47,355 nucleotides of DNA. Source: a virus. Location: the IMG/VR virus record IMGVR_UViG_3300045988_109730; one strand, written 5' to 3'. Shown here in pieces: positions 4,890 to 42,412 of the stretch (the stretch's first letter is position 1; the number at the start of each line of letters is the position of its first letter). Under the pieces are notes generated by a model that was not told the DNA's origin, did no database searches, and saw only the letters and a list, made by a program, of their open reading frames with translations. The translations under genes and the position numbers were made by a program.

Positions 4890-4923
4890 GTTAGGAAATG
4901 GCTTAAAATGGTCATTTCCTAAC
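4890..4923. other. Perfect 11-bp stem hairpin (gttaggaaatg/catttcctaac) just 3' of int
   Basis: Perfect inverted repeat with a 12-nt loop. Possible int terminator or recombination-site element. Confidence 0.5.
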
Positions 4924-4963
4924 ATATGTGTTACTAATTTGTTACTTGTTGAATGGAAATTTA

Positions 4964-5989
4964 TTATTTCAACAAGAGAATAGTATCTCTCAATTGTTCC
5001 ACTGTTTTATGATTATAAACCCTATTTCCAACATCTTTAGATTTGTGCCCCATCAGCATATCAATACACTTTCTATTACCACCTGCATTATCAAGGAATG
5101 TTTCAAAAGTATGTCTAGCTTCATGAGGAGTTTTCTTCTTCTTTGTTATATAAGAAATAACAGTTTTCCATTCTTCATAAAAATCCCCTTTTTTAAATTT
5201 AGATCCTTCATCAGTTTCTAAAAAATATTCATTACTTTTCTTTAGCCGATTTTTCACAAACGGCATGATACGAGGATGGATTGGCACAATTCTGTTCTTC
5301 CCTGAAGAAGATTTGCTTCCGCCTTTAAAATATTCTTCTTCAAGATTGATCTGATCACATGTCATATTTAACAATTCCATTAATCTGAATCCGGTGTAAA
5401 TATAGATTAATACAATATCTACATTTTTTTGATCAGATATTTTCCACAGAGCTTCAACTTCTTTTTCAGTGAATGGAGTGCGTTTAGTTTCTCCCTGTTC
5501 TGTGCTGACAGAAATTATTTGAGAATACATCTTATCTATAATGTCTAATTCAAATGCAAAATTATCTAAATGCCACCAAAGTGCTTTGATATGAGATTGT
5601 GTAGCGTAACTACGACCACAATCGTCCATGGTTGCTTGCATATGATAAGCTCGTATTTGCCTATATTTCTTTCCGTACAGTTTTTGACAATGTTTATAAG
5701 CTGCTTTAAGTGTATATAAACGAGAACTTCCAAGTTTAGGAGCTTTTACTTCAAGCCATCGCTTATATAATTCTGCAAGAGTGACGCGATTGCGATCAAT
5801 ATTCCAAGGATTATCATTGTACCTGGCTAAAATAATATTTGCCTCTTCACGAGTAGCAGCATAGTCCACTGGGACCTGCCTTCCGTGTCCATCTTCATCG
5901 TATGTAGTGACTTTAATCACATAAGGGCGTGAACGATTACCTTTTAATTTTGTCACACTGCCGTAGCCGTTGGGGTTTCTTCTTGCCAT
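4964..5989 (-). CDS. int: Tyrosine recombinase / phage integrase
   Basis: C-terminal catalytic signature HEARHTF...LMGH...VYNH. N-terminal arm-binding-like segment GYGSVTKLKGNRSRPYVIKV. Confidence 0.9.
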   Translation of the reverse strand: MARRNPNGYGSVTKLKGNRSRPYVIKVTTYDEDGHGRQVPVDYAATREEANIILARYNDNPWNIDRNRVTLAELYKRWLEVKAPKLGSSRLYTLKAAYKHCQKLYGKKYRQIRAYHMQATMDDCGRSYATQSHIKALWWHLDNFAFELDIIDKMYSQIISVSTEQGETKRTPFTEKEVEALWKISDQKNVDIVLIYIYTGFRLMELLNMTCDQINLEEEYFKGGSKSSSGKNRIVPIHPRIMPFVKNRLKKSNEYFLETDEGSKFKKGDFYEEWKTVISYITKKKKTPHEARHTFETFLDNAGGNRKCIDMLMGHKSKDVGNRVYNHKTVEQLRDTILLLK

Positions 5990-6041
5990 ATATCATCATT
6001 CCTTTCTAAAAAAAGGGTACAAAAAATACACCCTTATCAAA

Positions 6042-6070
6042 TTGTGTTTTTGCAGGATGTATGATATAAT
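6042..6070 (+). promoter_or_regulatory. Candidate promoter TTGTGT-17-(TGa)TATAAT
   Basis: Extended -10 TGaTATAAT at 6062-6070. Confidence 0.4.
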
Positions 6071-6076
6071 TCTGGT

Positions 6077-6156
6077 GTCGAGTCAGAAGCATATCACACA
6101 CCACGTTGTTGATAGGTTTCTAAATTCCGTCTGGTTGTCAGCCAGGCGGTTTTTTA
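6077..6156 (+). ncRNA. Candidate ~80-nt small RNA (promoter plus intrinsic terminator, no ORF)
   Basis: Terminator ccgtctgg-ttgtcag-ccaggcgg followed by TTTTTTATTTT at 6127-6160. No coding potential between the promoter and terminator. Confidence 0.35.
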
Positions 6157-6203
6157 TTTTGACCATTTTGGTGAAGTTACCGAAATGGTATTTAGTAAAT
6201 TGT

Positions 6204-6223
6204 TTTGTCAGAGTCTGACAAAA
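6204..6223. repeat. 20-bp palindromic element tttgtcagagtctgacaaaa, copy 1
   Basis: Identical to 7385-7404. The two copies bracket the HEPN-like gene. Confidence 0.9.
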
Positions 6224-6251
6224 GTATTTTGTATAAAAATCTGTGCATAAA

Positions 6252-6280
6252 TTGACAGATGATGTATAAACTATTATAAT
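6252..6280 (+). promoter_or_regulatory. Perfect consensus promoter TTGACA-17-TATAAT, antisense and convergent to the HEPN-like gene
   Basis: TTGACA at 6252-6257, an exact 17-nt spacer, TATAAT at 6275-6280. No plus-strand gene lies downstream. Confidence 0.6.
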
Positions 6281-6370
6281 GACAATAAGTTAACTCGAGA
6301 AGGATATGGCTGGGTTCCTGAATGGGAGTAGGCAGTAATGCTTAGAATTTCCTTTGCCCCTGGGGTTGAC

Positions 6371-7345
6371 TTATTTTTTTGTCTTAATATTATCTAAAAT
6401 ATGTTCTGGATCTTTTGTAAGTTCGACCACAATAAAATCAATTGCTTGCTGAGAATAGGTATATTGTGGTTGTTCATACTGTGTATGAATATAACAAAAC
6501 TTTTGATTGGCTTTTAATCCATAGTGTTTACAAAAATTATTAAAATGAAAACGGTTAAACTCAGTATTTTTACCATTATATTTTAACTGAATATTTTTCT
6601 TACTTATTTGTTTTTGTATAGCATCGATACAATGTTTTGCAGTATAACAGTGTGTTTTGTTTGGATCTTTCAGCTCTTTAATGATCTGCACAGGAGTATC
6701 AGCTGATTTATCAACTTTTACAAAAGAAGTAGCTTCTTCTTTTTTCTTTGTAATATAATGATGATGTTCTATGGTGATTGCAAATTTAGCATTATTATTC
6801 TGGGATAGAGTATCAATAGCATCACGTGTTTTGAATATTTTTGTAGCAATCTGTTCAGGATATTTTGCAATTATTTCAGATTCATTCAGGGCTTTCATGC
6901 TGACAGACAGTGTTAGAAAGTTTTGAGGAATGATTTCTGTCATGTCTATAGAATGAAATAACATCATTTTGTCATTAAAATTCAATATACAAGATTGAAA
7001 TAATGGAACATATACCATTTCATATTCTTCTACAATAAAGTGTGTACTGGTATTGCGAAGATCAATAATTTTTTCAAGATTGATACGAAGAGGATCTTTA
7101 TTATTTGTAAATACTTGTTGGATACAGTTTTCCAAAGATAAAGTTCGTTCTGGATTATCTTTATAATATATACTATTTTCGCCTTTTGCTTTTATCATAT
7201 AAGCTTTAAGCATTAATTCCCAGGCATTGCAGATAAAGAAACTAAAACCTTCAATTCTATATTTGATTGTTGGTTTATTGTATATTTCTATTGCCATGGT
7301 AAAAGCTTCTTTTGATTTGTCAAGTAGTTTTTCTGTAAGGTCCAT
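6371..7345 (-). CDS. HEPN-like (DUF3644-like) protein with RNxxxH motif, putative RNase effector
   Basis: ATG at 7345 lies 7 nt after AAGGAG. The track TTG start at 7402 would translate the palindrome. Motif RNTSTH is encoded at 7040-7057. The N-terminal domain is helical. Confidence 0.6.
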   Translation of the reverse strand: MDLTEKLLDKSKEAFTMAIEIYNKPTIKYRIEGFSFFICNAWELMLKAYMIKAKGENSIYYKDNPERTLSLENCIQQVFTNNKDPLRINLEKIIDLRNTSTHFIVEEYEMVYVPLFQSCILNFNDKMMLFHSIDMTEIIPQNFLTLSVSMKALNESEIIAKYPEQIATKIFKTRDAIDTLSQNNNAKFAITIEHHHYITKKKEEATSFVKVDKSADTPVQIIKELKDPNKTHCYTAKHCIDAIQKQISKKNIQLKYNGKNTEFNRFHFNNFCKHYGLKANQKFCYIHTQYEQPQYTYSQQAIDFIVVELTKDPEHILDNIKTKK

Positions 7346-7384
7346 ATGTTTACTCCTTATTATACCTGCTGTACTTTTTACTGC

Positions 7385-7404
7385 TTTGTCAGAGTCTGAC
7401 AAAA
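7385..7404. repeat. 20-bp palindromic element tttgtcagagtctgacaaaa, copy 2
   Basis: Identical to 6204-6223. Lies between the SAP gene stop and the HEPN-like gene start. Confidence 0.9.
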
Positions 7405-7409
7405 TAAAT

Positions 7410-8522
7410 CTATTTCAATCTCAACCGAATCAATTCCTCACTATACCCAAGTGCCAGTGCGATCTGATTCGTCGTAAATTCCTTCATCCATTTGTCATGA
7501 TCGTAATTATTATTGATTATATCTTCAACCAAACGTTTGAAAGTATTTTTATCGCATAAGACAAATTCATAAAAGTGATTCATTACTTCACAAGCATCTT
7601 CAAAAATTGTTTGAGAATAAAATTCTCTTAAATTATAAATTTTTCCTACAAGATATGTTAAATATGGTTCATTAAAAGAATCTGAATGTACACGTGTAGA
7701 AGAATATACGCCATCGTTATATAATGATATGCTGCTAAAATTTGAAGCCATAATCTCAAAGTAGAGTGCCTTTAGGTAGTACAGAAGAGAATCTTCCTGT
7801 TTACCTGAATCACCTAGCCATTCAGCCATAGATCGATAATTACATGTTAATAAATTGAATTTACTATTTTTCATGTATTCAAATTCTCGATCATTGAATA
7901 TAGACCAAATGATCTTATGAAAATCATAATTATTTGGACATGATTTCTTAGCAGATATATATTCGTCAATGCCTATCCCTAATTTGATTCTGTGGTTAAA
8001 CAGATCAATATAATCTTTGTGATTTTCCACAAAATATTTTCCCTTATTAGATAGAGAATAAAATTTTATATGATCAGCATTTAAAATATGCATTAATTCA
8101 TCAGAGGAATCAGTAGCTAATAGACGATTGATCAAATCTTCTTTGTTCCCTGATACATGTAGACGTAATTCTCTTAACAGAGCTTTTAACTCTGGTATTC
8201 TTAAAGAACGCAAGATATCTACCAATTCAGCATCTTTATAATAACCATCTTGGACTAATTTTTTATGAAATTTAGATGGGCTTTTGATTTCAAAATCATA
8301 CTGGAAGTATCTTGGATATTCGTTGTCGTCCATGATCGGAGTTCCAGTACTGTATCTGTCGAGGAATACAGCTGTATAAAACTCTCTTTTTTTTAGGGAA
8401 ACTTCTGAATCATTGACATAAGATGATGAATCCAAGGCGATGTTAGGAGTTGATGGTTCATCTAAAATTTCTTGCTTAGGTTCTTCGGGTTTCGACTTTC
8501 TGAAAAAATCAAAGATGCTCAT
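7410..8522 (-). CDS. SAP-domain protein with an ImmA-like C-terminal tail, function unknown
   Basis: SAP motif LRIPELKALLRELRLHVSGNKEDLINRLL. The last 23 aa, EFTTNQIALALGYSEELIRLRLK, resemble the ImmA C-terminus. ATGA overlap with the upstream gene. Confidence 0.7.
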   Translation of the reverse strand: MSIFDFFRKSKPEEPKQEILDEPSTPNIALDSSSYVNDSEVSLKKREFYTAVFLDRYSTGTPIMDDNEYPRYFQYDFEIKSPSKFHKKLVQDGYYKDAELVDILRSLRIPELKALLRELRLHVSGNKEDLINRLLATDSSDELMHILNADHIKFYSLSNKGKYFVENHKDYIDLFNHRIKLGIGIDEYISAKKSCPNNYDFHKIIWSIFNDREFEYMKNSKFNLLTCNYRSMAEWLGDSGKQEDSLLYYLKALYFEIMASNFSSISLYNDGVYSSTRVHSDSFNEPYLTYLVGKIYNLREFYSQTIFEDACEVMNHFYEFVLCDKNTFKRLVEDIINNNYDHDKWMKEFTTNQIALALGYSEELIRLRLK

Positions 8523-9931
8523 TCTTGATGTTCCTCCTCTCGTAGTTTCAGGGAGATTCTGTACTGATCAGCATCAGGAACATCAACAAATTCCACTGTT
8601 TTATCAAAATTATTCTTAACAACATCCTTGATCTCATCTAAGGAAACTCTGAAAAATTCTCTTCTTTGGTTTACAAGGTTTAATTTACGATCTTCAAAAG
8701 CTCTATGTAAGGCTGCTTCCAATGCTGGAGCATCCTCTGAAAAGATCATTGCATGTACATCAAATTTGAATGGAACAGAAGCATCTCCTAATTCATCTAC
8801 ACGATCTTGTGGATTTAATCTACGTGTCATACCGATTTTGTAAATACCTTCACCGAATGATCCAATGTTAGAAATTACATATACATAACCAGCTTTTTGG
8901 TTAGCCTCTCTGTAATCAATATCCTTGATTTTAGTGTCAATCTCGGAAAGAGATTGTATGATTTCCTCTTTCTTTTGATTTAAATCTTCTATATTGTCAT
9001 CAGAAGCGGTTGAAATTTGATGATTGATATTAGAAAGGGCTTGTTCGTAATGTTTGCGTTCTTTATCAATATTTTTACGTTGTTCTTTTAGTTCTTTTTG
9101 TAATCGAGCTTCTTCACGCTGTTGAGCTCTTAATTCTGCCTTTTGTTCCTTTTCACGCTGTTTTTGAATCTGATATTCGAGAGCTAATCTAAGCTCTTGA
9201 ATTTTCAGATCATAGTAATGAGCGGTTATGGCAATTGACATTGTTACACCCAATTTAGCAATAGCATTGAAACTTCGTTCCATTTTCTTAACAGATGTAT
9301 CATAGTTATTGTATTTTACCTTACTAATAATCTCATCACATTCACTGTTGAACGCACGAAGCAGTAGCTTCTGCATGTCTCTTACTAACTTTCGTCCTTT
9401 GGCTTCACTACCATTTACTTGCCATCCTATGTTCCCGGATACAGCTGTATCATCCTTGATCATTGCTTTCTGCTGGTTTCGTATATTTATGAGCTCTGCT
9501 TTATAAGCATCAGCGTTAGTAAAAGAGTAGCGTGGTTCATATAACCCGAAATCCTGAACAAGAACTTCATCAGAGAAAGTAATAAGTTCATTTTTCAATT
9601 CTTTTATATTAGAATTTAGCTCATTAATTTCGTCATTGTAAGCAAGAATAAGCGACTTTTGCTTAGAAATTTCTTCCATGTACTTATCATACTGTTCTGA
9701 AAGCTTTTGTTCTTGTTCCATTTTATCATGAGCAAATTTTACTTGTGATTCAGAAATCTGTTTTTGTAAAGATTCCAAATCCAACATTTCAGGTGTAAGC
9801 TTCGATTCCAATTTAGCTTTTTCGATTTCAAGATTAGCAATTGTTTTTTGCATTTCTAAATTAGAATTTTCTAATTCCTGAATCTTATCATTTAATTCGT
9901 TGTTTCCAAATATTGAATTTAATAACCCCAT
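8519..9931 (-). CDS. DUF4041-like protein with C-terminal T5orf172 (GIY-YIG-like) nuclease-type domain and long coiled coils
   Basis: C-terminal GYVYVISN..GIYKIGMTRRLNPQDRVDELG..FKFDVHAMIF..LHRAF..REFF. The central region is typical of DUF4041. Starts 10 nt after the immA stop. Confidence 0.75.
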   Translation of the reverse strand: MGLLNSIFGNNELNDKIQELENSNLEMQKTIANLEIEKAKLESKLTPEMLDLESLQKQISESQVKFAHDKMEQEQKLSEQYDKYMEEISKQKSLILAYNDEINELNSNIKELKNELITFSDEVLVQDFGLYEPRYSFTNADAYKAELINIRNQQKAMIKDDTAVSGNIGWQVNGSEAKGRKLVRDMQKLLLRAFNSECDEIISKVKYNNYDTSVKKMERSFNAIAKLGVTMSIAITAHYYDLKIQELRLALEYQIQKQREKEQKAELRAQQREEARLQKELKEQRKNIDKERKHYEQALSNINHQISTASDDNIEDLNQKKEEIIQSLSEIDTKIKDIDYREANQKAGYVYVISNIGSFGEGIYKIGMTRRLNPQDRVDELGDASVPFKFDVHAMIFSEDAPALEAALHRAFEDRKLNLVNQRREFFRVSLDEIKDVVKNNFDKTVEFVDVPDADQYRISLKLREEEHQE

Positions 9932-9941
9932 TATGTTCCCT

Positions 9942-10370
9942 TCATTTTGATTTTAATCTTAACTTAATTAGTTTTTCAGTGTACCCAAGAGCGAGTGCAA
10001 TTTGTTCAGTTGTATATTCTTGATATTCTAAGAATGTTTCGTCAGGTACCAGAAGTTCCATAGCAAATAAATCAGCTTCTTTTTCGTATTTTGTGGTGTT
10101 AAATCCAGTATACGTATCCATGAAGAGAGCGTTAGCCTTTTTATGCAGTAGCATGTGGCCTAACTCATGGGCGCAGACAAGAATCTGTTCATGTTCTGGA
10201 AGAGAATCATCAATATAGATAATATTATTTCTTTGAAAATATTGATAAAACCCTCTGACACCTTCAAGTGGCACTGGCACAAGAATAACATTTAGTCCTT
10301 TGATAATCTCAAAAGGATTTCTTGTTTTGTGTTTCTTGACAAGCGAATTTACAATCTTTTTTATGTCCAT
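9942..10370 (-). CDS. immA: ImmA/IrrE-family zinc metallopeptidase (anti-repressor protease)
   Basis: HEXXH motif AHELGHMLLH. Sits immediately downstream of the XRE repressor, as in ImmR/ImmA modules. Confidence 0.85.
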   Translation of the reverse strand: MDIKKIVNSLVKKHKTRNPFEIIKGLNVILVPVPLEGVRGFYQYFQRNNIIYIDDSLPEHEQILVCAHELGHMLLHKKANALFMDTYTGFNTTKYEKEADLFAMELLVPDETFLEYQEYTTEQIALALGYTEKLIKLRLKSK

Positions 10371-10375
10371 TCACA

Positions 10376-10813
10376 TCAGTCCTTTTTGTATTTTTTAGGT
10401 GTATATTTTTCCTTGTTCTTTTTCTTAGCCATCTCCATCCCAATTTCCATTGCGTTTAGAATAGATTCAATTGCTTCAGGAGAAGCAGGATCACCATCAA
10501 ACATTAGTCCTTCTTGGGATGTTAGTTTGTCTTTGGTTTGCTGTAGGATTTCTTCTATTTGTTTTGTGTCTCTTTTATTAAGTTCTGCAGAAGAAGATTT
10601 CTTTTCTACCAAATCCGATTTTTCTATTCCAAAATAATTAGCCATCATTTCTATTTTGTCAATTCGTGGATAGGTTCGTGCATGCATCCAATCTGATACG
10701 GTAGACATTTTAAAACCTAAGGTGTTGCACATTTCTGTTTGAGTAACATCGTTAGCCTTTAGATAGTATTTTATATTTCTAGCCATGACTTCTTTGTTTC
10801 CTAAGTCGCTCAT
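10376..10813 (-). CDS. XRE-family HTH lysogeny repressor (CI/ImmR-like)
   Basis: HTH_3-type N-terminus (NIKYYLKANDVTQTEMCNTLGFKMSTVSDWMH). Divergent from the cro-like gene. Confidence 0.85.
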   Translation of the reverse strand: MSDLGNKEVMARNIKYYLKANDVTQTEMCNTLGFKMSTVSDWMHARTYPRIDKIEMMANYFGIEKSDLVEKKSSSAELNKRDTKQIEEILQQTKDKLTSQEGLMFDGDPASPEAIESILNAMEIGMEMAKKKNKEKYTPKKYKKD

Positions 10814-10850
10814 TTACCAGTGCCTCCTTTCTTGATTTGAATATGTCTAT

Positions 10851-10879
10851 ATTATAATGGAGAAACCGAAAAAAATCAA
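10851..10879 (-). promoter_or_regulatory. Leftward (repressor) promoter TTGATT-17-TATAAT
   Basis: Read on the minus strand: -35 at 10874-10879, -10 at 10851-10856. Overlapped by phased AACCG repeats. Confidence 0.6.
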
Positions 10880-10908
10880 CATAAACCGAAAAAAATTCGG
10901 AAAAACCG

Positions 10909-10937
10909 TTGACACTTCGGTTTAACCGTGGTAGTAT
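10909..10937 (+). promoter_or_regulatory. Rightward (early/cro) promoter TTGACA-17-TAGTAT with operator repeats
   Basis: TTGACA at 10909-10914. The spacer contains cttcggtttaaccg, which recurs at 11189-11202. Confidence 0.6.
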
Positions 10938-10964
10938 ATAAGAGAACTAAGGAGGTGAGCGAAA

Positions 10965-11213
10965 GTGAAAATGGAAACTAGATTTCCTAAAGATATGAAA
11001 GCAACATTAAAAAGTATCCGTGAAATGCGAGGGTATAAGCAAGAAGAAGCTGCTAAATTAATAGGAATAGCGACAGATACACTTAGAAACTATGAACAAG
11101 GAAAGTCTTATCCAGATATTCCAGTGCTTCGTAAAATAGAAGAAACGTATAATGTACGTTATTCGCAGATTATTTTTTTACCGTTAGACTTCGGTTTAAC
11201 CGAAATTAAATAA
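10965..11213 (+). CDS. Cro-like XRE-family HTH regulator
   Basis: HTH_3 motif (GYKQEEAAKLIGIATDTLRNYEQGKSYP). AAGGAGGTG RBS. Divergent from the repressor. Confidence 0.8.
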   Translation: MKMETRFPKDMKATLKSIREMRGYKQEEAAKLIGIATDTLRNYEQGKSYPDIPVLRKIEETYNVRYSQIIFLPLDFGLTEIK

Positions 11214-11228
11214 CCAGGAGGTGAGAAT

Positions 11229-11432
11229 ATGGGAAAAAAACCAGATATCACAATAACTAGTGATTATTTGAATTATGTAAGAAATCAAATTCAAAAAGCA
11301 ATTACAACGCTCTGCCAAAAAGAATATCTAGATGAAGAAGATGTAGTTGCACTCCTTCAAATGACAGAAGCGTTGCAAAGCTTAGGGACAAAAGCTATTA
11401 AGAAGCGTGTTATTCAACGTCCTTATAAATAA
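11229..11432 (+). CDS. Hypothetical early protein
   Basis: RBS aggaggtg upstream of the ATG. Co-directional with cro. Confidence 0.6.
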   Translation: MGKKPDITITSDYLNYVRNQIQKAITTLCQKEYLDEEDVVALLQMTEALQSLGTKAIKKRVIQRPYK

Positions 11433-24297: not shown

Positions 24298-24373
24298 GGA
24301 CCACTAGCTCAGCAGGGAGAGCGGTCGGCTTATAACCGATGAACAGTCCAGGGTTCGAGTCCCTGGTGGTCCA
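24298..24373 (+). tRNA. tRNA with anticodon UAU (Ile, AUA codon); atypical 8-nt variable loop
   Basis: Hand-folded cloverleaf. Acceptor GGACCAC/GTGGTCC; D stem GCTC/GAGC; anticodon stem GTCGG/CCGAT with loop CTTATAA; T arm CAGGG-TTCGAGT-CCCTG; discriminator A. No encoded CCA. Confidence 0.7.
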
Positions 24374-39355: not shown

Positions 39356-42274
39356 ATGGCAAACAAAGAAATTGTGATCGATGTTGTATCGGAATATTCC
39401 GACCATGCATCTTCTGGCCTACAGCAAACAGGGAAGAATGCAGAGAAAGCATCACGAGAGATGGACAAGCTTGGAAAGAAGCGTGCAAAGCCAAAATTAG
39501 GACTTGAAGATAAAGCAAGTCCAGTCCTCGACAAGTTTGGTAAAAAGGGAGACGGGCTCGGTAAAAAGACCTGGACTCCAAAACTTGGATTAAAAGACAC
39601 TGCAACAGCAGGGATCAAAAAAGCTATGAGTGCTGGTATGAGTTTTGGTAGAAAGACTTTTTCAGCAGTCCTAAAAATCGATGACAAGGTAACAAGTCAG
39701 ATCAAAAAAATCCCAAGTGTTATATCTAAGATCAAGAATTCTATATTTTCACTAAAAACTTTGGCTGGTGGAGTTATAACTGGAATTGCTACAAAGAAAT
39801 TGATAGCTGATCCAGTATCATTAGCAGACGAATTTCAGACAGATCAAATTGGCTTTGAAACAATGCTGAAATCTAAAAAGAAAGCTACGAAGTTTATGGA
39901 TAGTGCGAAGAAATTTGCATCTGTTACTCCGTTTGACACATCGGCCGTAGTATCAAATGCTCAAAGGATGTTGGCTTATGGTTTTTCTGATAAAGACATT
40001 ATTCCGGATCTAACAAAGATCGGTAATGCATCCGCAGCACTTGGAGCTGGAGAAGAGGGTATCTCTCGAGTATCCAGAGCTTTAGGTCAGATGAAAACAA
40101 ACGGAAGGCTGAACGCAGAGGACATGAATCAGCTGACAGATGTCGGCATAAACGCATGGAAGTATCTTGCTGATGCAGAGGGTAAATCCATAGCCCAGAT
40201 CAGAGAAATGTCTCAAAAGGGCGAAATCAGTGGAGACAAAGCAGTTAAGACAATCCTTAATGGGCTGAAAGAATTTGATGGAATGATGGACAAAACATCT
40301 AATTCGACGGTTTCTGGATTAATGTCAAATATTAAAGATACGTTCGACATAAACATTGTTTCTAAATGGGGAAAAGGTCTCCAGAAGGGAGCAACGAAAG
40401 GTTTAGGAGAATTTGCAGATTATCTCGATAAATCCGATGCAAAACTAAAAGAAGCTGGAACATCACTTGAAAAACTTGGAGAGTATGCAAGTACATCTGT
40501 ATTCAAGGGACTTGAAAAGGCTGGAGATAAGATCGACGATCTTATTAGTATGCCAAAATTCCAAAATGCTTCAATCGGTGGCAAGATTAGTATTGCTTGG
40601 GATGAACTGATTGTAAATCCGTTTTCTAAGTGGTGGGATTCTAAAGGAAGACCGACGATCGTTAAAAAGATTACTGGGATTGGAAAAGATATTGCAAAAG
40701 CTGGTGGAAACTGGTTCAAGGAATCTCTTAAGGATCTGTTACCAGGCGGAGATAAAGCTGGTATCGAAGATTATTTAGCTGGATTTCTTGGATTATCTGG
40801 AGGGCTAAAGCTGTTTAAAGGTGGAAAAAGTCTATACGATCTGATCATTGGCGGTTCTGGAGGTGGAGGAAAAACAAATCCTTTGGGAGATTCTATTGGA
40901 ACAATCAATGTGTCCGCGGCAGTTGTAAATGTGAACGGAGGAATTGGAAACGGAAATTCTACAATACCGGGAACAAATCCAACAGGTAATAAAGAAATCT
41001 GGTTACCAGAAAGCGTAAAGCGAAAAATGCAACAAACTGAACCGAAAACACCATCTGGACCGACAAGGACACCGGGTGGCTTGTTTGGTTTAGGCGGTTC
41101 TGGTGTCACGCTGAAAAATGGAGAAACCGTAGCTGCCACTGGATGGAAAGCATGGCTTGGAAATCTAGGCGTAAAACTTGGATCAGGTGCAGCGACCGCT
41201 GGTGGAGCAGCAGCCGTTGGAGGTGCATCTTTATTAGGTGGAGCTTTAGGGATTGCTGGAATAGGAAGTGCAGCTGGTAATATTTATAACGCAGTGACCT
41301 CAAAAGATTCAGCCACGAAGAAGAAGGAAGCCTATAGAGGTGGTACGAAACTTGGAATGGTTGGCGGCGGTGCAGCCGCTGGTGCAGCTATTGGAGCCGG
41401 ATTTGGTGGTATCGGAGCTGTTCCAGGCGCATTAATTGGAGCTGGAATTGGTGGACTTGGTGCGATTTTTAAAGGGAATAAAGCTGGAGATGCACTTAGA
41501 AATTTCGTATCAAAAAGAAAAAAAGCACTAAAAAACAGCAATTCTATGACAGCAAAAGGTCAAGATTATTGGAAATATAGCAAAGAAAGTATTAGTAGTG
41601 TTAATCCAAAAGAGGCGAAATATAAAGAGCTGGCGAGTTCAGTACAGAAAGCGTATGAGGAGAACAAAAAGAATACAAAACAGACAAACGTTGGTTCTAA
41701 GAGTACAAAAGTCTTTTCTGGGGCAACTGACGCTGCTGGTAATAAAGTTACTGGCTTAGGTGGTATGTCTGCAAGTACTACCGGAATGCTTGGAAGCATG
41801 GGTTCAATGTCTCTTACAGCTGGTGGCAACTTACAAAGTGCTGGAAGTTCCGCATTATCACTTGCAGGTGCTTTAGCATCCGCAGCCTCAACGATTGCAT
41901 CCGCAGCAAGTACAACCGCTGCACAAGCAAGTGCGATCAAAAGTATTACTAGTGGAAGTTATCTAAGTAATAGCGGTTCTTCAAAATCTGGTAAAAAGAA
42001 AACAAGCAAAAAGACATCATCCGCACCGAAAGTACAGACAGCCTTACCGAAAAATGGAAAGTTCTTTCATAATGCGAAGGGTAGTCTGGTCAGAGGTCAT
42101 ATCGTTTCTGAATTAGGAGAAGAAGGAAACGAAATGGTCATTCCACTTTCTAGACATAGAAGCCGTGCATTATCTCTCTGGAATCAAGCAGGACAGATTT
42201 TAGGCGTTACAAAGCATGCCAAAGGTGGACTTGTTGGAGGATCATCCGGATCTGGAAAAGCTTCGTCTGGTAGC
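39356..42274 (+). CDS. Tape measure protein, 3' end lost into an adapter artefact
   Basis: Long helical and Gly-rich protein. Conserved C-terminal ELGEEGNEMVIPLSRHRSRALSLWNQAGQILG. From 42275 the ORF continues into Illumina adapter sequence. Confidence 0.85.
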
Positions 42275-42412
42275 AGATCGGAAGAGCGTCGTGTAGGGAA
42301 AGAGTGTAGATCTCGGTGGTCGCCGTATCATTAAAAAAATTTTTTTCAAGCAGAAGACGGCATACGAGATTACGTACGGTGACTGGAGTTCAGACGTGTG
42401 CTCTTCCGATCT
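42275..42412. other. Illumina TruSeq adapter dimer assembled into the contig (not biological)
   Basis: Exact AGATCGGAAGAGCGTCGTGTAGGGAAAGAGTGTAGATCTCGGTGGTCGCCGTATCATT + A7T7 + CAAGCAGAAGACGGCATACGAGAT-tacgtacg-GTGACTGGAGTTCAGACGTGTGCTCTTCCGATCT. Confidence 0.98.

Follow-up and report, generated by a model that had tools for sequence, protein, structure and literature searches.

PD-lambda-1 was found in E. coli as a single-gene defence system (Vassallo et al. 2022, PMC9519451). The E. coli protein, SNIPE, is a nuclease anchored in the membrane; with its DUF4041 and GIY-YIG domains it cleaves the DNA of a phage while this is being injected (Saxton et al. 2026, PMC13190303). Its DUF4041 region binds the tape-measure complex as well as DNA, and the protein is toxic when its transmembrane (TM) helix is removed; among SNIPE homologues 66% have TM helices and 34% have none (PMC13190303). 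In Streptococcus thermophilus, too, a single homologous gene gives protection (PMC12322248). The second described group of relevance here is DUF3644, the EC042_2821 HEPN family, for which a restriction-endonuclease-fold domain has been described as fusion partner (Anantharaman et al. 2013, PMC3710099). Two DUF3644 relatives, HEC-08 (bioRxiv 10.1101/2024.01.29.577857) and Ishtar (bioRxiv 10.64898/2026.07.06.735840), have experimental defence activity. Homologues of both groups lie close together in IMG/VR virus record IMGVR_UViG_3300045988_109730, 47,355 nucleotides (nt) long (below, "the window" is this whole stretch of DNA), as the outer two of three contiguous genes in a lysogeny operon.

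An earlier note on this DNA had proposed that the three genes together form one undescribed defence system. We consider it probable that the region is, instead, a mosaic defence-cargo island in the lysogeny operon and not a single three-component system. It would consist of a solo SNIPE, a co-inherited but dispensable SAP-TPR protein and an independent HEPN cassette.

The outer genes: SNIPE and PDC-S19

All three open reading frames (ORFs) are present on the minus strand: gene (i) at 8519-9931, encoding 470 amino acids (aa), gene (ii) at 7410-8522 (370 aa) and gene (iii) at 6371-7345 (324 aa). The stop codon of immA (TGA, 9942-9944) is followed by a 10-nt spacer, AGGGAACATA, and then by the ATG of gene (i) at 9929-9931; the end of gene (i) and the start of gene (ii) share an ATGA at 8519-8522. 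Coordinates, spacing, overlap and motifs had all been given correctly in the earlier note. Domain calls on the proteins of the island and its flanking genes were made with the Pfam, PADLOC, PHROG and NCBIfam profile libraries, and the loci examined are labelled L001 onwards.

Gene (i) encodes, in this order, an N-terminal peptide MGLLNSIFG, a coiled coil, DUF4041, another coiled coil and a T5orf172/GIY-YIG-type nuclease domain. Its identification as a DUF4041/T5orf172 protein, made earlier from the letters alone, agrees with the Pfam matches: DUF4041 (PF13250) at E 2e-23 over profile positions 1-56 of 56, and, for the nuclease domain, T5orf172 (PF10544) at E 4e-21 and MUG113 (PF13455) at E 2e-21. 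The PADLOC model PD-Lambda-1 (PDLC03976) is matched at E 5e-155, with residues 24-469 on profile positions 49-478 of 491, and PHROG 1847 at E 4e-160. The motifs GYVY, YKIGMTRR, RVDELG and R-x-EFF are invariant in seven homologues with identity down to 58%, and a ratio of nonsynonymous to synonymous divergence (dN/dS) of 0.04-0.09 means strong purifying selection. By these matches gene (i) is homologous over its full length to PD-lambda-1/SNIPE, which is known as a defence nuclease encoded by a single gene. An anti-phage role of single-gene DUF4041/T5orf172 proteins had been mentioned, as in need of verification, in the earlier note; the PADLOC match and the published work (PMC9519451, PMC13190303, PMC12322248) bear it out. 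The suggestion that gene (i) is part of a new system is not supported: the gene is of a known kind, and a mechanism for it has been published in the meantime (PMC13190303).

Gene (i) shares with E. coli SNIPE the order of DUF4041 and C-terminal GIY-YIG/T5orf172 domain and the conserved catalytic-type residues; it is also prophage-borne and placed for expression in lysogens. It differs in having no transmembrane helix. A search for a TM-like segment found none (maximum 19-residue Kyte-Doolittle hydropathy 1.02), and for lack of a hydrophobic segment we place it in the TM-less 34% class of homologues. Since that share of homologues also does without an anchor, the anchor is a variable rather than a defining feature of SNIPE. 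The lineage of gene (i) differs further in carrying an overlapping downstream SAP-TPR gene, an arrangement not described in PMC13190303, and in its host, a Gram-positive anaerobe, to which ManYZ-type partners are therefore inapplicable.

The mechanically called ORF of gene (iii) begins at a TTG at 7402. The ATG at 7345, preferred in the earlier note, is the likelier start because the family profiles align from residue 21 and an AAGGAG stands 7 nt upstream of this ATG. The protein matches the PADLOC model PDC-S19 over its full length (E 1e-145) and Pfam DUF3644 (PF12358) at E 9e-61, and its C-terminal part matches the EC042_2821 restriction-endonuclease-like domain (PF18740) at E 3e-32 over profile positions 1-97 of 97. 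The motif RNTSTH, encoded by nt 7040-7057, corresponds to residues 97-102; in 16 homologues (49-66% identity) R97 and H102 never vary and N98 hardly does. This, together with the DUF3644 match, supports the HEPN-like reading given before. A sequence search of the PDB with gene (iii) returned nothing useful, and in the literature we found no direct test of PDC-S19, which is a computational candidate family.

The neighbourhoods of gene (iii) homologues are informative as well. Among 80 viral loci with PDC-S19 homologues, SNIPE or SAP genes are nearby only in the window's own clones, and in about 70 viral loci the homologue has neither gene within 4 kb. By profile and by neighbourhood, gene (iii) is an EC042_2821-type HEPN protein of the named candidate family PDC-S19 and a single-gene unit. 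With EC042_2821/PDC-S19 proteins it shares the DUF3644 HEPN domain with invariant R-x4-H, the EC042_2821 C-terminal domain and a solitary position on mobile elements. HEC-08 is different in that it has zinc-finger C-terminal domains where gene (iii) has the restriction-endonuclease-like one.

The PADLOC models thus name genes (i) and (iii), as PD-Lambda-1 and PDC-S19, and give no significant match for gene (ii). The impression that the partners of gene (i) were new has to be narrowed accordingly to gene (ii), the only uncharacterised one. For annotation this means that genes (i) and (iii) should be called SNIPE/PD-lambda-1 and PDC-S19 (HEPN), and not parts of a new system.

An exchangeable third slot between palindromes

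Gene (iii) is, as far as alignments tell, a recombinational arrival whose scar can still be read. The last 24 aa of the SAP protein in the window are 75% identical to the C-terminus of ImmA, and this immA-derived tail is missing from the SAP homologues of 356-366 aa. At the DNA level, the window is the same as L042, which carries a 357-aa SAP allele, up to a joint at 7475-7483. Past the joint it is the same as L159, through the immA 3' end, the intergenic region and the 5' end of the HEPN gene. The crossover falls in a 9-nt microhomology, AGGAATTTA, at 7475-7483. The immA 3' tail (7410-7483, minus strand) is fused in frame to the SAP gene, so that the last ~21 SAP residues are immA-derived. 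In L159 the order is immA, a palindrome and then this same HEPN gene, and L159 is identical to the window across the junction. The chimeric SAP-immA allele is common: its cluster (P0001) has 616 member sequences, and it is found in several IMG/VR contigs as well.

The co-occurrence of all three genes across related elements, which the earlier note had suggested examining, is not seen. In loci that combine SAP with a SNIPE of 86-100% identity, gene (iii) is absent or present as a fragment, or other genes stand in its place; it is missing, truncated or replaced in L001-L023, L041, L042, L044, L046 and L048-L053. L041 comes from a near-identical phage. Its SNIPE is 100% identical and its SAP-immA fusion the same; in place of the HEPN gene stands a gene for a 535-aa SIR2_2/PDC-S25 protein.

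What the two cassettes have in common is their boundaries. Gene (iii) is flanked by two copies of a 19-nt palindrome that the earlier note had missed: the upstream copy, TTTGTCAGAGTCTGACAAA, at 7385-7403, forms the edge of the third slot, and the downstream copy is at 6204-6222. The exact 19-nt site, TTTGTCAGA(G/C)TCTGACAAA, occurs twice in the window against an expectation of 0.01. In L041 the SIR2 gene lies between the same two palindromes, at L041 6529-6547 and 8417-8435, and the same palindrome precedes a SIR2-like gene in L055 (5623-5641) as it does in L041. About 40-78 nt to the left of the downstream palindrome are also common to the HEPN cassette of the window and the SIR2 cassettes of L041 and L056. 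Within the ~78-nt segment that HEPN and SIR2 cassettes share before this palindrome there is a perfect sigma-70 consensus at 6252-6280 on the plus strand (TTGACA, 17 nt, TATAAT; 12/12), directed into the 3' end of gene (iii) and antisense to it. It could be the promoter of an antisense RNA or a part of the cassette boundary.

We rejected the possibility that the palindrome is an intrinsic terminator: with a T-run before the stem and an A-run after it, the arrangement is the wrong one. The terminator scan flagged only the plus-strand copy at 6203-6223, and that weakly. Other repeat families returned by the repeat search of the window were short AT-rich chance matches and were also discarded.

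The palindrome is by no means confined to this island. There are 138 sites in 90 IMG/VR stretches, 128 of them intergenic, in 85 distinct flank contexts, and only the palindrome itself is conserved. Sites often occur in arrays, in which palindrome and gene alternate and a palindrome stands at either end. Conflict genes make up most of the cargo between sites: PDC-S19, PDC-S25 (SIR2), a DEDDh-BRCT exonuclease, AbiD/Abi_2, PBECR3 and a MazF-like toxin. Further palindrome loci include L223, L229 and L241. In L210, L233 and L240 two palindromes 198 nt apart lie between a tRNA-Ile gene and the tRNA-Arg gene that comes next. In 28 loci a gene for a 182-aa tyrosine recombinase lies 265-480 nt from a palindrome or palindrome pair. 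The protein consists of the catalytic domain only (Phage_integrase E 5e-24; for example L210 2075-2623), and its position makes it a candidate for the enzyme that acts on the sites. It is absent from the window. The sites could be a recombinase-serviced cassette system; equally, homologous exchange could occur there at what is a conserved linker or operator.

Comparison with integrons is natural, as phages have been reported to carry integron-like elements (PMC9892861) and chromosomal integrons to carry defence cassettes (bioRxiv 10.1101/2024.07.02.601686). As in integrons, the palindrome arrays have one gene to a unit, mostly a conflict gene, with the same short palindromic site at the edges of each unit, and a tyrosine-recombinase gene is consistently near the sites in related phages. 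There are differences too. The site is a perfect palindrome of 19-21 nt and not attC; the recombinase is a catalytic-domain-only protein of 182 aa and not IntI, and the window is without one; recombination at the sites is putative.

Whatever the mechanism of exchange, the island would be a clean example of how a prophage defence island is assembled: a known entry-blocking nuclease stands beside a slot that swaps single-gene effectors (HEPN, SIR2), the exchange takes place at an exact short palindrome, and the recombination joint is legible in the sequence. It also raises the possibility that abundant phages of the human gut have a mechanism by which defence genes are exchanged as cassettes.

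The SAP-TPR protein and its ties to SNIPE

Gene (ii) encodes an N-terminal peptide, MSIFDFFRK, followed by a disordered linker and a helical core with a SAP domain (residues 105-135, Pfam E 3e-9) and TPR-like repeats (about residues 226-313). The SAP motif had been recognised in the earlier note; its statement that the protein has no other recognisable feature overlooked the TPR-like C-terminal half as well as the immA-derived end. An AlphaFold2 model built with the family alignment, with a predicted local distance difference test (pLDDT) of 88 and a predicted template-modelling score (pTM) of 0.82, has ~39 disordered N-terminal residues and then an all-helical core. The family profile matches SAP domains (5e-11), consensus TPR proteins (7e-6) and the SAP region of FAN1 (3e-3). 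The best Foldseek matches of the model in the PDB are FAN1-DNA complexes, at a non-significant E of 0.02, a probability of 0.96 and a TM-score of 0.27; in BFVD, the fold search returned only unannotated phage "SAP domain" proteins. FAN1 is a structure-specific nuclease of SAP-TPR-VRR-nuc layout. Gene (ii) likewise has a SAP domain and then TPR-like repeats, but it has no nuclease domain, its C-terminal half is all-helical, and it starts with a membrane-peptide-like N-terminus, which FAN1 does not. The model and the profiles point to a weak architectural resemblance, not to family membership. Gene (ii) has no significant PADLOC match, no PHROG match and no useful NCBIfam match, and a literature search found no paper linking SAP-domain proteins to phage defence.

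The family itself is large. A word-indexed search had suggested a tiny family of 5 clusters; this was overturned by an exhaustive profile search, which gave 1,464 clusters (50% identity) at E<=1e-3 and 520 at E<=1e-10. Members are mostly ~350 aa long and align over nearly their full length. A SAP domain was found in 74 of 78 sampled members, and rare N-terminal additions are TM2, zinc ribbon, RNase_T and MarR. Family representatives P0128, P0129 and P0131 have no relatives in IMG/VR, and a degenerate motif scan of JGI metagenomes returned two short contigs. By its profile matches gene (ii) is a member of a large uncharacterised family, the sole uncharacterised gene of the three. The majority of members sampled stand alone: after a CI/S24 repressor (L036), beside the integrase of Streptococcus phage Javan617, in a phage structural module (L032), or on a chromosome in a non-defence neighbourhood (L033-L035).

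A start peptide of the type MG[LFI][LF]..[LF] (as in MGLFDFLKKK) is present in 61 of 149 family representatives, and a further 27 of the 149 have an N-terminal hydrophobic segment that is TM-like by hydropathy. The layout that recurs in the family, with such a start followed by a linker, the SAP domain and TPR-like repeats, points to a binder of DNA and protein close to the membrane. TM-less SNIPE homologues of several clades start with MGLLNSIFG, MGLFDTFKG or MALSDIFNAG. The two families are unrelated, and SAP-TPR and TM-less SNIPE proteins share an N-terminal peptide of the MG(L/F/I)(F/L)xx(F/L)(K/G)KK type (representatives P0126-P0274; L029, L084 and the window), which suggests a common membrane-targeting module. 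N-terminal amphipathic peptides of a similar kind anchor Vipp1/PspA and Noc to membranes. From this resemblance we infer that SNIPE and SAP-TPR are membrane-proximal.

Several observations speak for gene (ii) as a partner of SNIPE. SAP follows SNIPE with a 4-nt overlap in every one of the 17 IMG/VR loci whose SNIPE is at least 87% identical, and the same overlap is seen in 21 examined metagenome loci of this SNIPE type. The pair stays constant while repressors, integrases and third-slot genes vary among these loci. Synonymous divergence (dS) between the same phage pairs is similar for SNIPE and SAP genes (0.50 vs 0.45, 1.84 vs 1.64 and 1.56 vs 1.38), from which it follows that the two have been inherited together. 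The SAP protein changes about 5 times faster, with 47-83% identity against 86-94% for SNIPE, and its dN/dS is 0.18-0.35. In L029-L031 the order is reversed: a SAP member, 32% identical, stands immediately upstream of a 59%-identical SNIPE. The next gene of the reversed locus (L029 7403-7948) encodes a Uma2-family protein matching the PADLOC candidate PDC-S03 (E 1e-50), a single-gene candidate in the same hotspot.

The distribution is otherwise narrow. A SNIPE clade at 85% identity (9 IMG/VR contigs) branches from within the SAP-bearing clade of a neighbour-joining tree, and all 6 of its informative loci lack a SAP gene. In this clade a terminator, the palindrome and a SIR2 cassette come after SNIPE, and no region-specific change in SNIPE was detected. 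At 52-61% SNIPE identity a SAP-family ORF is present in none of 48 informative loci, and 5 loci from GTDB genomes, one of them with hardly any sequence downstream, have none either. Apart from the reversed loci, the partner is confined to one branch, with SNIPE of at least 86% identity, and not every SNIPE of this type has it. Because the 85% clade and the 52-61% loci do without SAP, and because most sampled members stand alone, we conclude that gene (ii) is probably a long-standing but dispensable, facultative companion of this SNIPE lineage.

The mosaic reading can be put in terms of a mechanism. The carrier of the island would be a temperate phage of gut Lachnospiraceae (Anaerostipes type). 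SNIPE, presumably expressed in the lysogen given its operon position, would act on its own, a view to which the lack of SAP in the 85% sister clade and in all more distant relatives lends indirect support. By homology it should be at the membrane, where the MGLLNSIFG peptide and the coiled coil may take the place of a TM anchor. If it works as the E. coli protein does, its DUF4041 would, when a siphophage superinfects, engage the tape-measure complex and the DNA coming in, and the GIY-YIG-type domain would cut this DNA during injection. The SAP-TPR protein may also be near the membrane, contacting DNA through its SAP domain and a protein partner through the TPR-like region; most likely it would share its site of action with SNIPE and serve as a facultative accessory or a second exclusion factor. 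Gene (iii) would be an independent cassette whose HEPN RNase activity, to go by its family and its DUF3644 relatives, is triggered by infection and probably abortive. It would have been brought from a phage in which the HEPN gene directly follows immA, and now occupies a palindrome-bounded, exchangeable slot.

Several points weigh against this account. The C-terminal domain of gene (iii) has no invariant acidic residue and no clear PD-(D/E)xK signature in the 16-sequence alignment, and with acidic residues not obviously conserved its nuclease activity is uncertain. PADLOC-DB dates from 2023, and newer named systems could include gene (ii). Hydrophobic-moment values for the start peptides of the window's SNIPE and SAP proteins are unremarkable. 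As these values did not single the peptides out, membrane targeting is argued from family-wide patterns, namely the resemblance of the peptides and the TM-like substitutes in relatives. The long co-divergence of SNIPE and SAP, the kept 4-nt overlap and the distant reversed pair could mean a coupling tighter than "facultative". Finally, the host is not a model organism.

A bolder version of the mosaic reading would make the SAP-TPR protein the first member to be noticed of a large, undescribed phage/Firmicute family of membrane-tethered DNA binders that act on incoming DNA in exclusion or defence, here as accessory to a TM-less SNIPE, and would place the third slot in a palindrome-delimited, recombinase-serviced, integron-like defence-cassette system of gut Lachnospiraceae phages. 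We offer it tentatively, as a possibility that we doubt in this full form. Its attraction is that a widespread SAP-TPR family, long travelling with TM-less SNIPE, could explain how an anchorless SNIPE finds or handles incoming DNA.

It is also conceivable, if unlikely, that the SAP-TPR protein has no defence role at all. It could be a lysogeny or regulatory protein combining DNA binding with a TPR sensor (RRNPP/AimR-type), or have a counter-defence or DNA-organising role, and its linkage with SNIPE would then reflect a shared cargo position after the repressor. Members directly after CI-type repressors (L036; Javan617), the one in a structural module and the one in a chromosomal non-defence neighbourhood fit such a role. 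So do the rare fusions to MarR or winged-helix domains, and the lack of any significant PADLOC match, PHROG match or literature link to defence. Against this, TM-like segments or membrane-peptide-like starts occur in ~60% of the family, which is unusual for a transcription factor, and a dN/dS well above that of SNIPE fits an arms-race interface. The SNIPE adjacency recurs in two gene orders, and no small peptide gene or operator pattern was seen.

At the other extreme, SNIPE and SAP-TPR could form an obligate two-component variant of SNIPE, a reading we think quite unlikely. SAP-TPR would either recruit the TM-less nuclease to the injection site or incoming DNA, as the SAP-TPR part of FAN1 positions its nuclease, or restrain it from cutting the host chromosome. 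The toxicity of TM-deleted E. coli SNIPE (PMC13190303) implies that TM-less versions need some other control. The ATGA overlap is present in every locus of the SAP-bearing clade; the similar dS values mean long co-inheritance despite exchange of flanking repressors, integrases and third-slot genes; adjacency is kept, in reverse, in the distant pair; and both proteins begin with a peptide of the same type. FAN1 is the top fold match in the PDB, and profile searches give the same SAP-plus-TPR layout, but the fold match is poor by TM-score and non-significant by E-value. An obligate partner is also hard to reconcile with a common SAP-less clade nested among SAP-bearing relatives without region-specific change in SNIPE, with the empty score in the more distant TM-less SNIPE loci, or with the many solitary family members.

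That genes (i), (ii) and (iii) are one new system of DNA nuclease, DNA binder and HEPN RNase is highly improbable: they follow one another on a single strand without a predicted terminator in between and all three have conflict-type domains, but gene (iii) is absent or replaced in phages with the same genes (i) and (ii), the junction before it is a scar of recombination, its homologues do without the other two in about 70 viral loci, and genes (i) and (iii) each match a single-gene PADLOC model over their full length.

Setting of the island in the phage

The leftward lysogeny operon is opened by a gene for an XRE/HTH repressor (10376-10813, minus strand; Pfam HTH_3 and HTH_26), followed on the same strand by immA, which encodes an ImmA/IrrE-type metallopeptidase (9942-10370; Peptidase_M78 E 5e-21). 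Beyond the island lies a tyrosine integrase gene (4964-5989, minus strand; Phage_integrase E 1e-18). These Pfam calls agree with the earlier description of the region as a cargo island in the lysogeny operon between immA and int.

The switch region is divergent, with promoter-like sites on each strand; the one for the repressor is at 10879-10851 on the minus strand. From there to the end of gene (iii) the consensus scan found no terminator-like site on the minus strand, the first being a hairpin at 6035-6013 that precedes the integrase gene. Of the earlier claim that the cargo is co-transcribed with the repressor, the absence of an intervening terminator-like site stands. With the consensus scan as its sole basis, transcription of genes (i)-(iii) from the repressor promoter is better described as compatible with the sequence than as established.

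Lysogeny modules of prophages are known hotspots for such cargo, or "morons", with defence genes beside the repressor or integrase; the Sie and Ltp proteins of lactic-acid-bacteria phages are examples. The present island resembles them in lying between repressor/ImmA and integrase, in being co-oriented with the repressor and in differing among related phages. It differs in that one slot is bounded by an exact 19-nt palindrome, which recurs at many cargo edges in related phages.

The window looks like a whole temperate phage genome. Its gene order was read as lysin, lysogeny module, early genes, terminase, capsid, tape-measure position and tail-region ORFs. Among those phage-module labels only the lysin was recognised, by eye from its translation; the early, terminase, capsid, tape-measure and tail labels are guesses from ORF size and order. 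A 992-aa ORF at 39356-42334 occupies the expected tape-measure position. A megablast search of INPHARED with 4900-11300 gave no related sequenced phage, the sole match being 56 nt long.

Two minor observations may be added. A tRNA-Ile gene (anticodon TAT) at 24298-24373 lies upstream of ORFs that, by size and position only, are probably terminase genes. In related phages the equivalent tRNA-Ile is followed by the palindrome pair and tRNA-Arg, and the window is without both. Two Firmicute-phage contigs with SNIPE, L023 (CAKUZO010000080.1) and L024 (CALUEU010000019.1), one of them with SAP, have been binned as Melainabacteria and Methanomassiliicoccus metagenome-assembled genomes; these labels are probably binning artefacts on short contigs.

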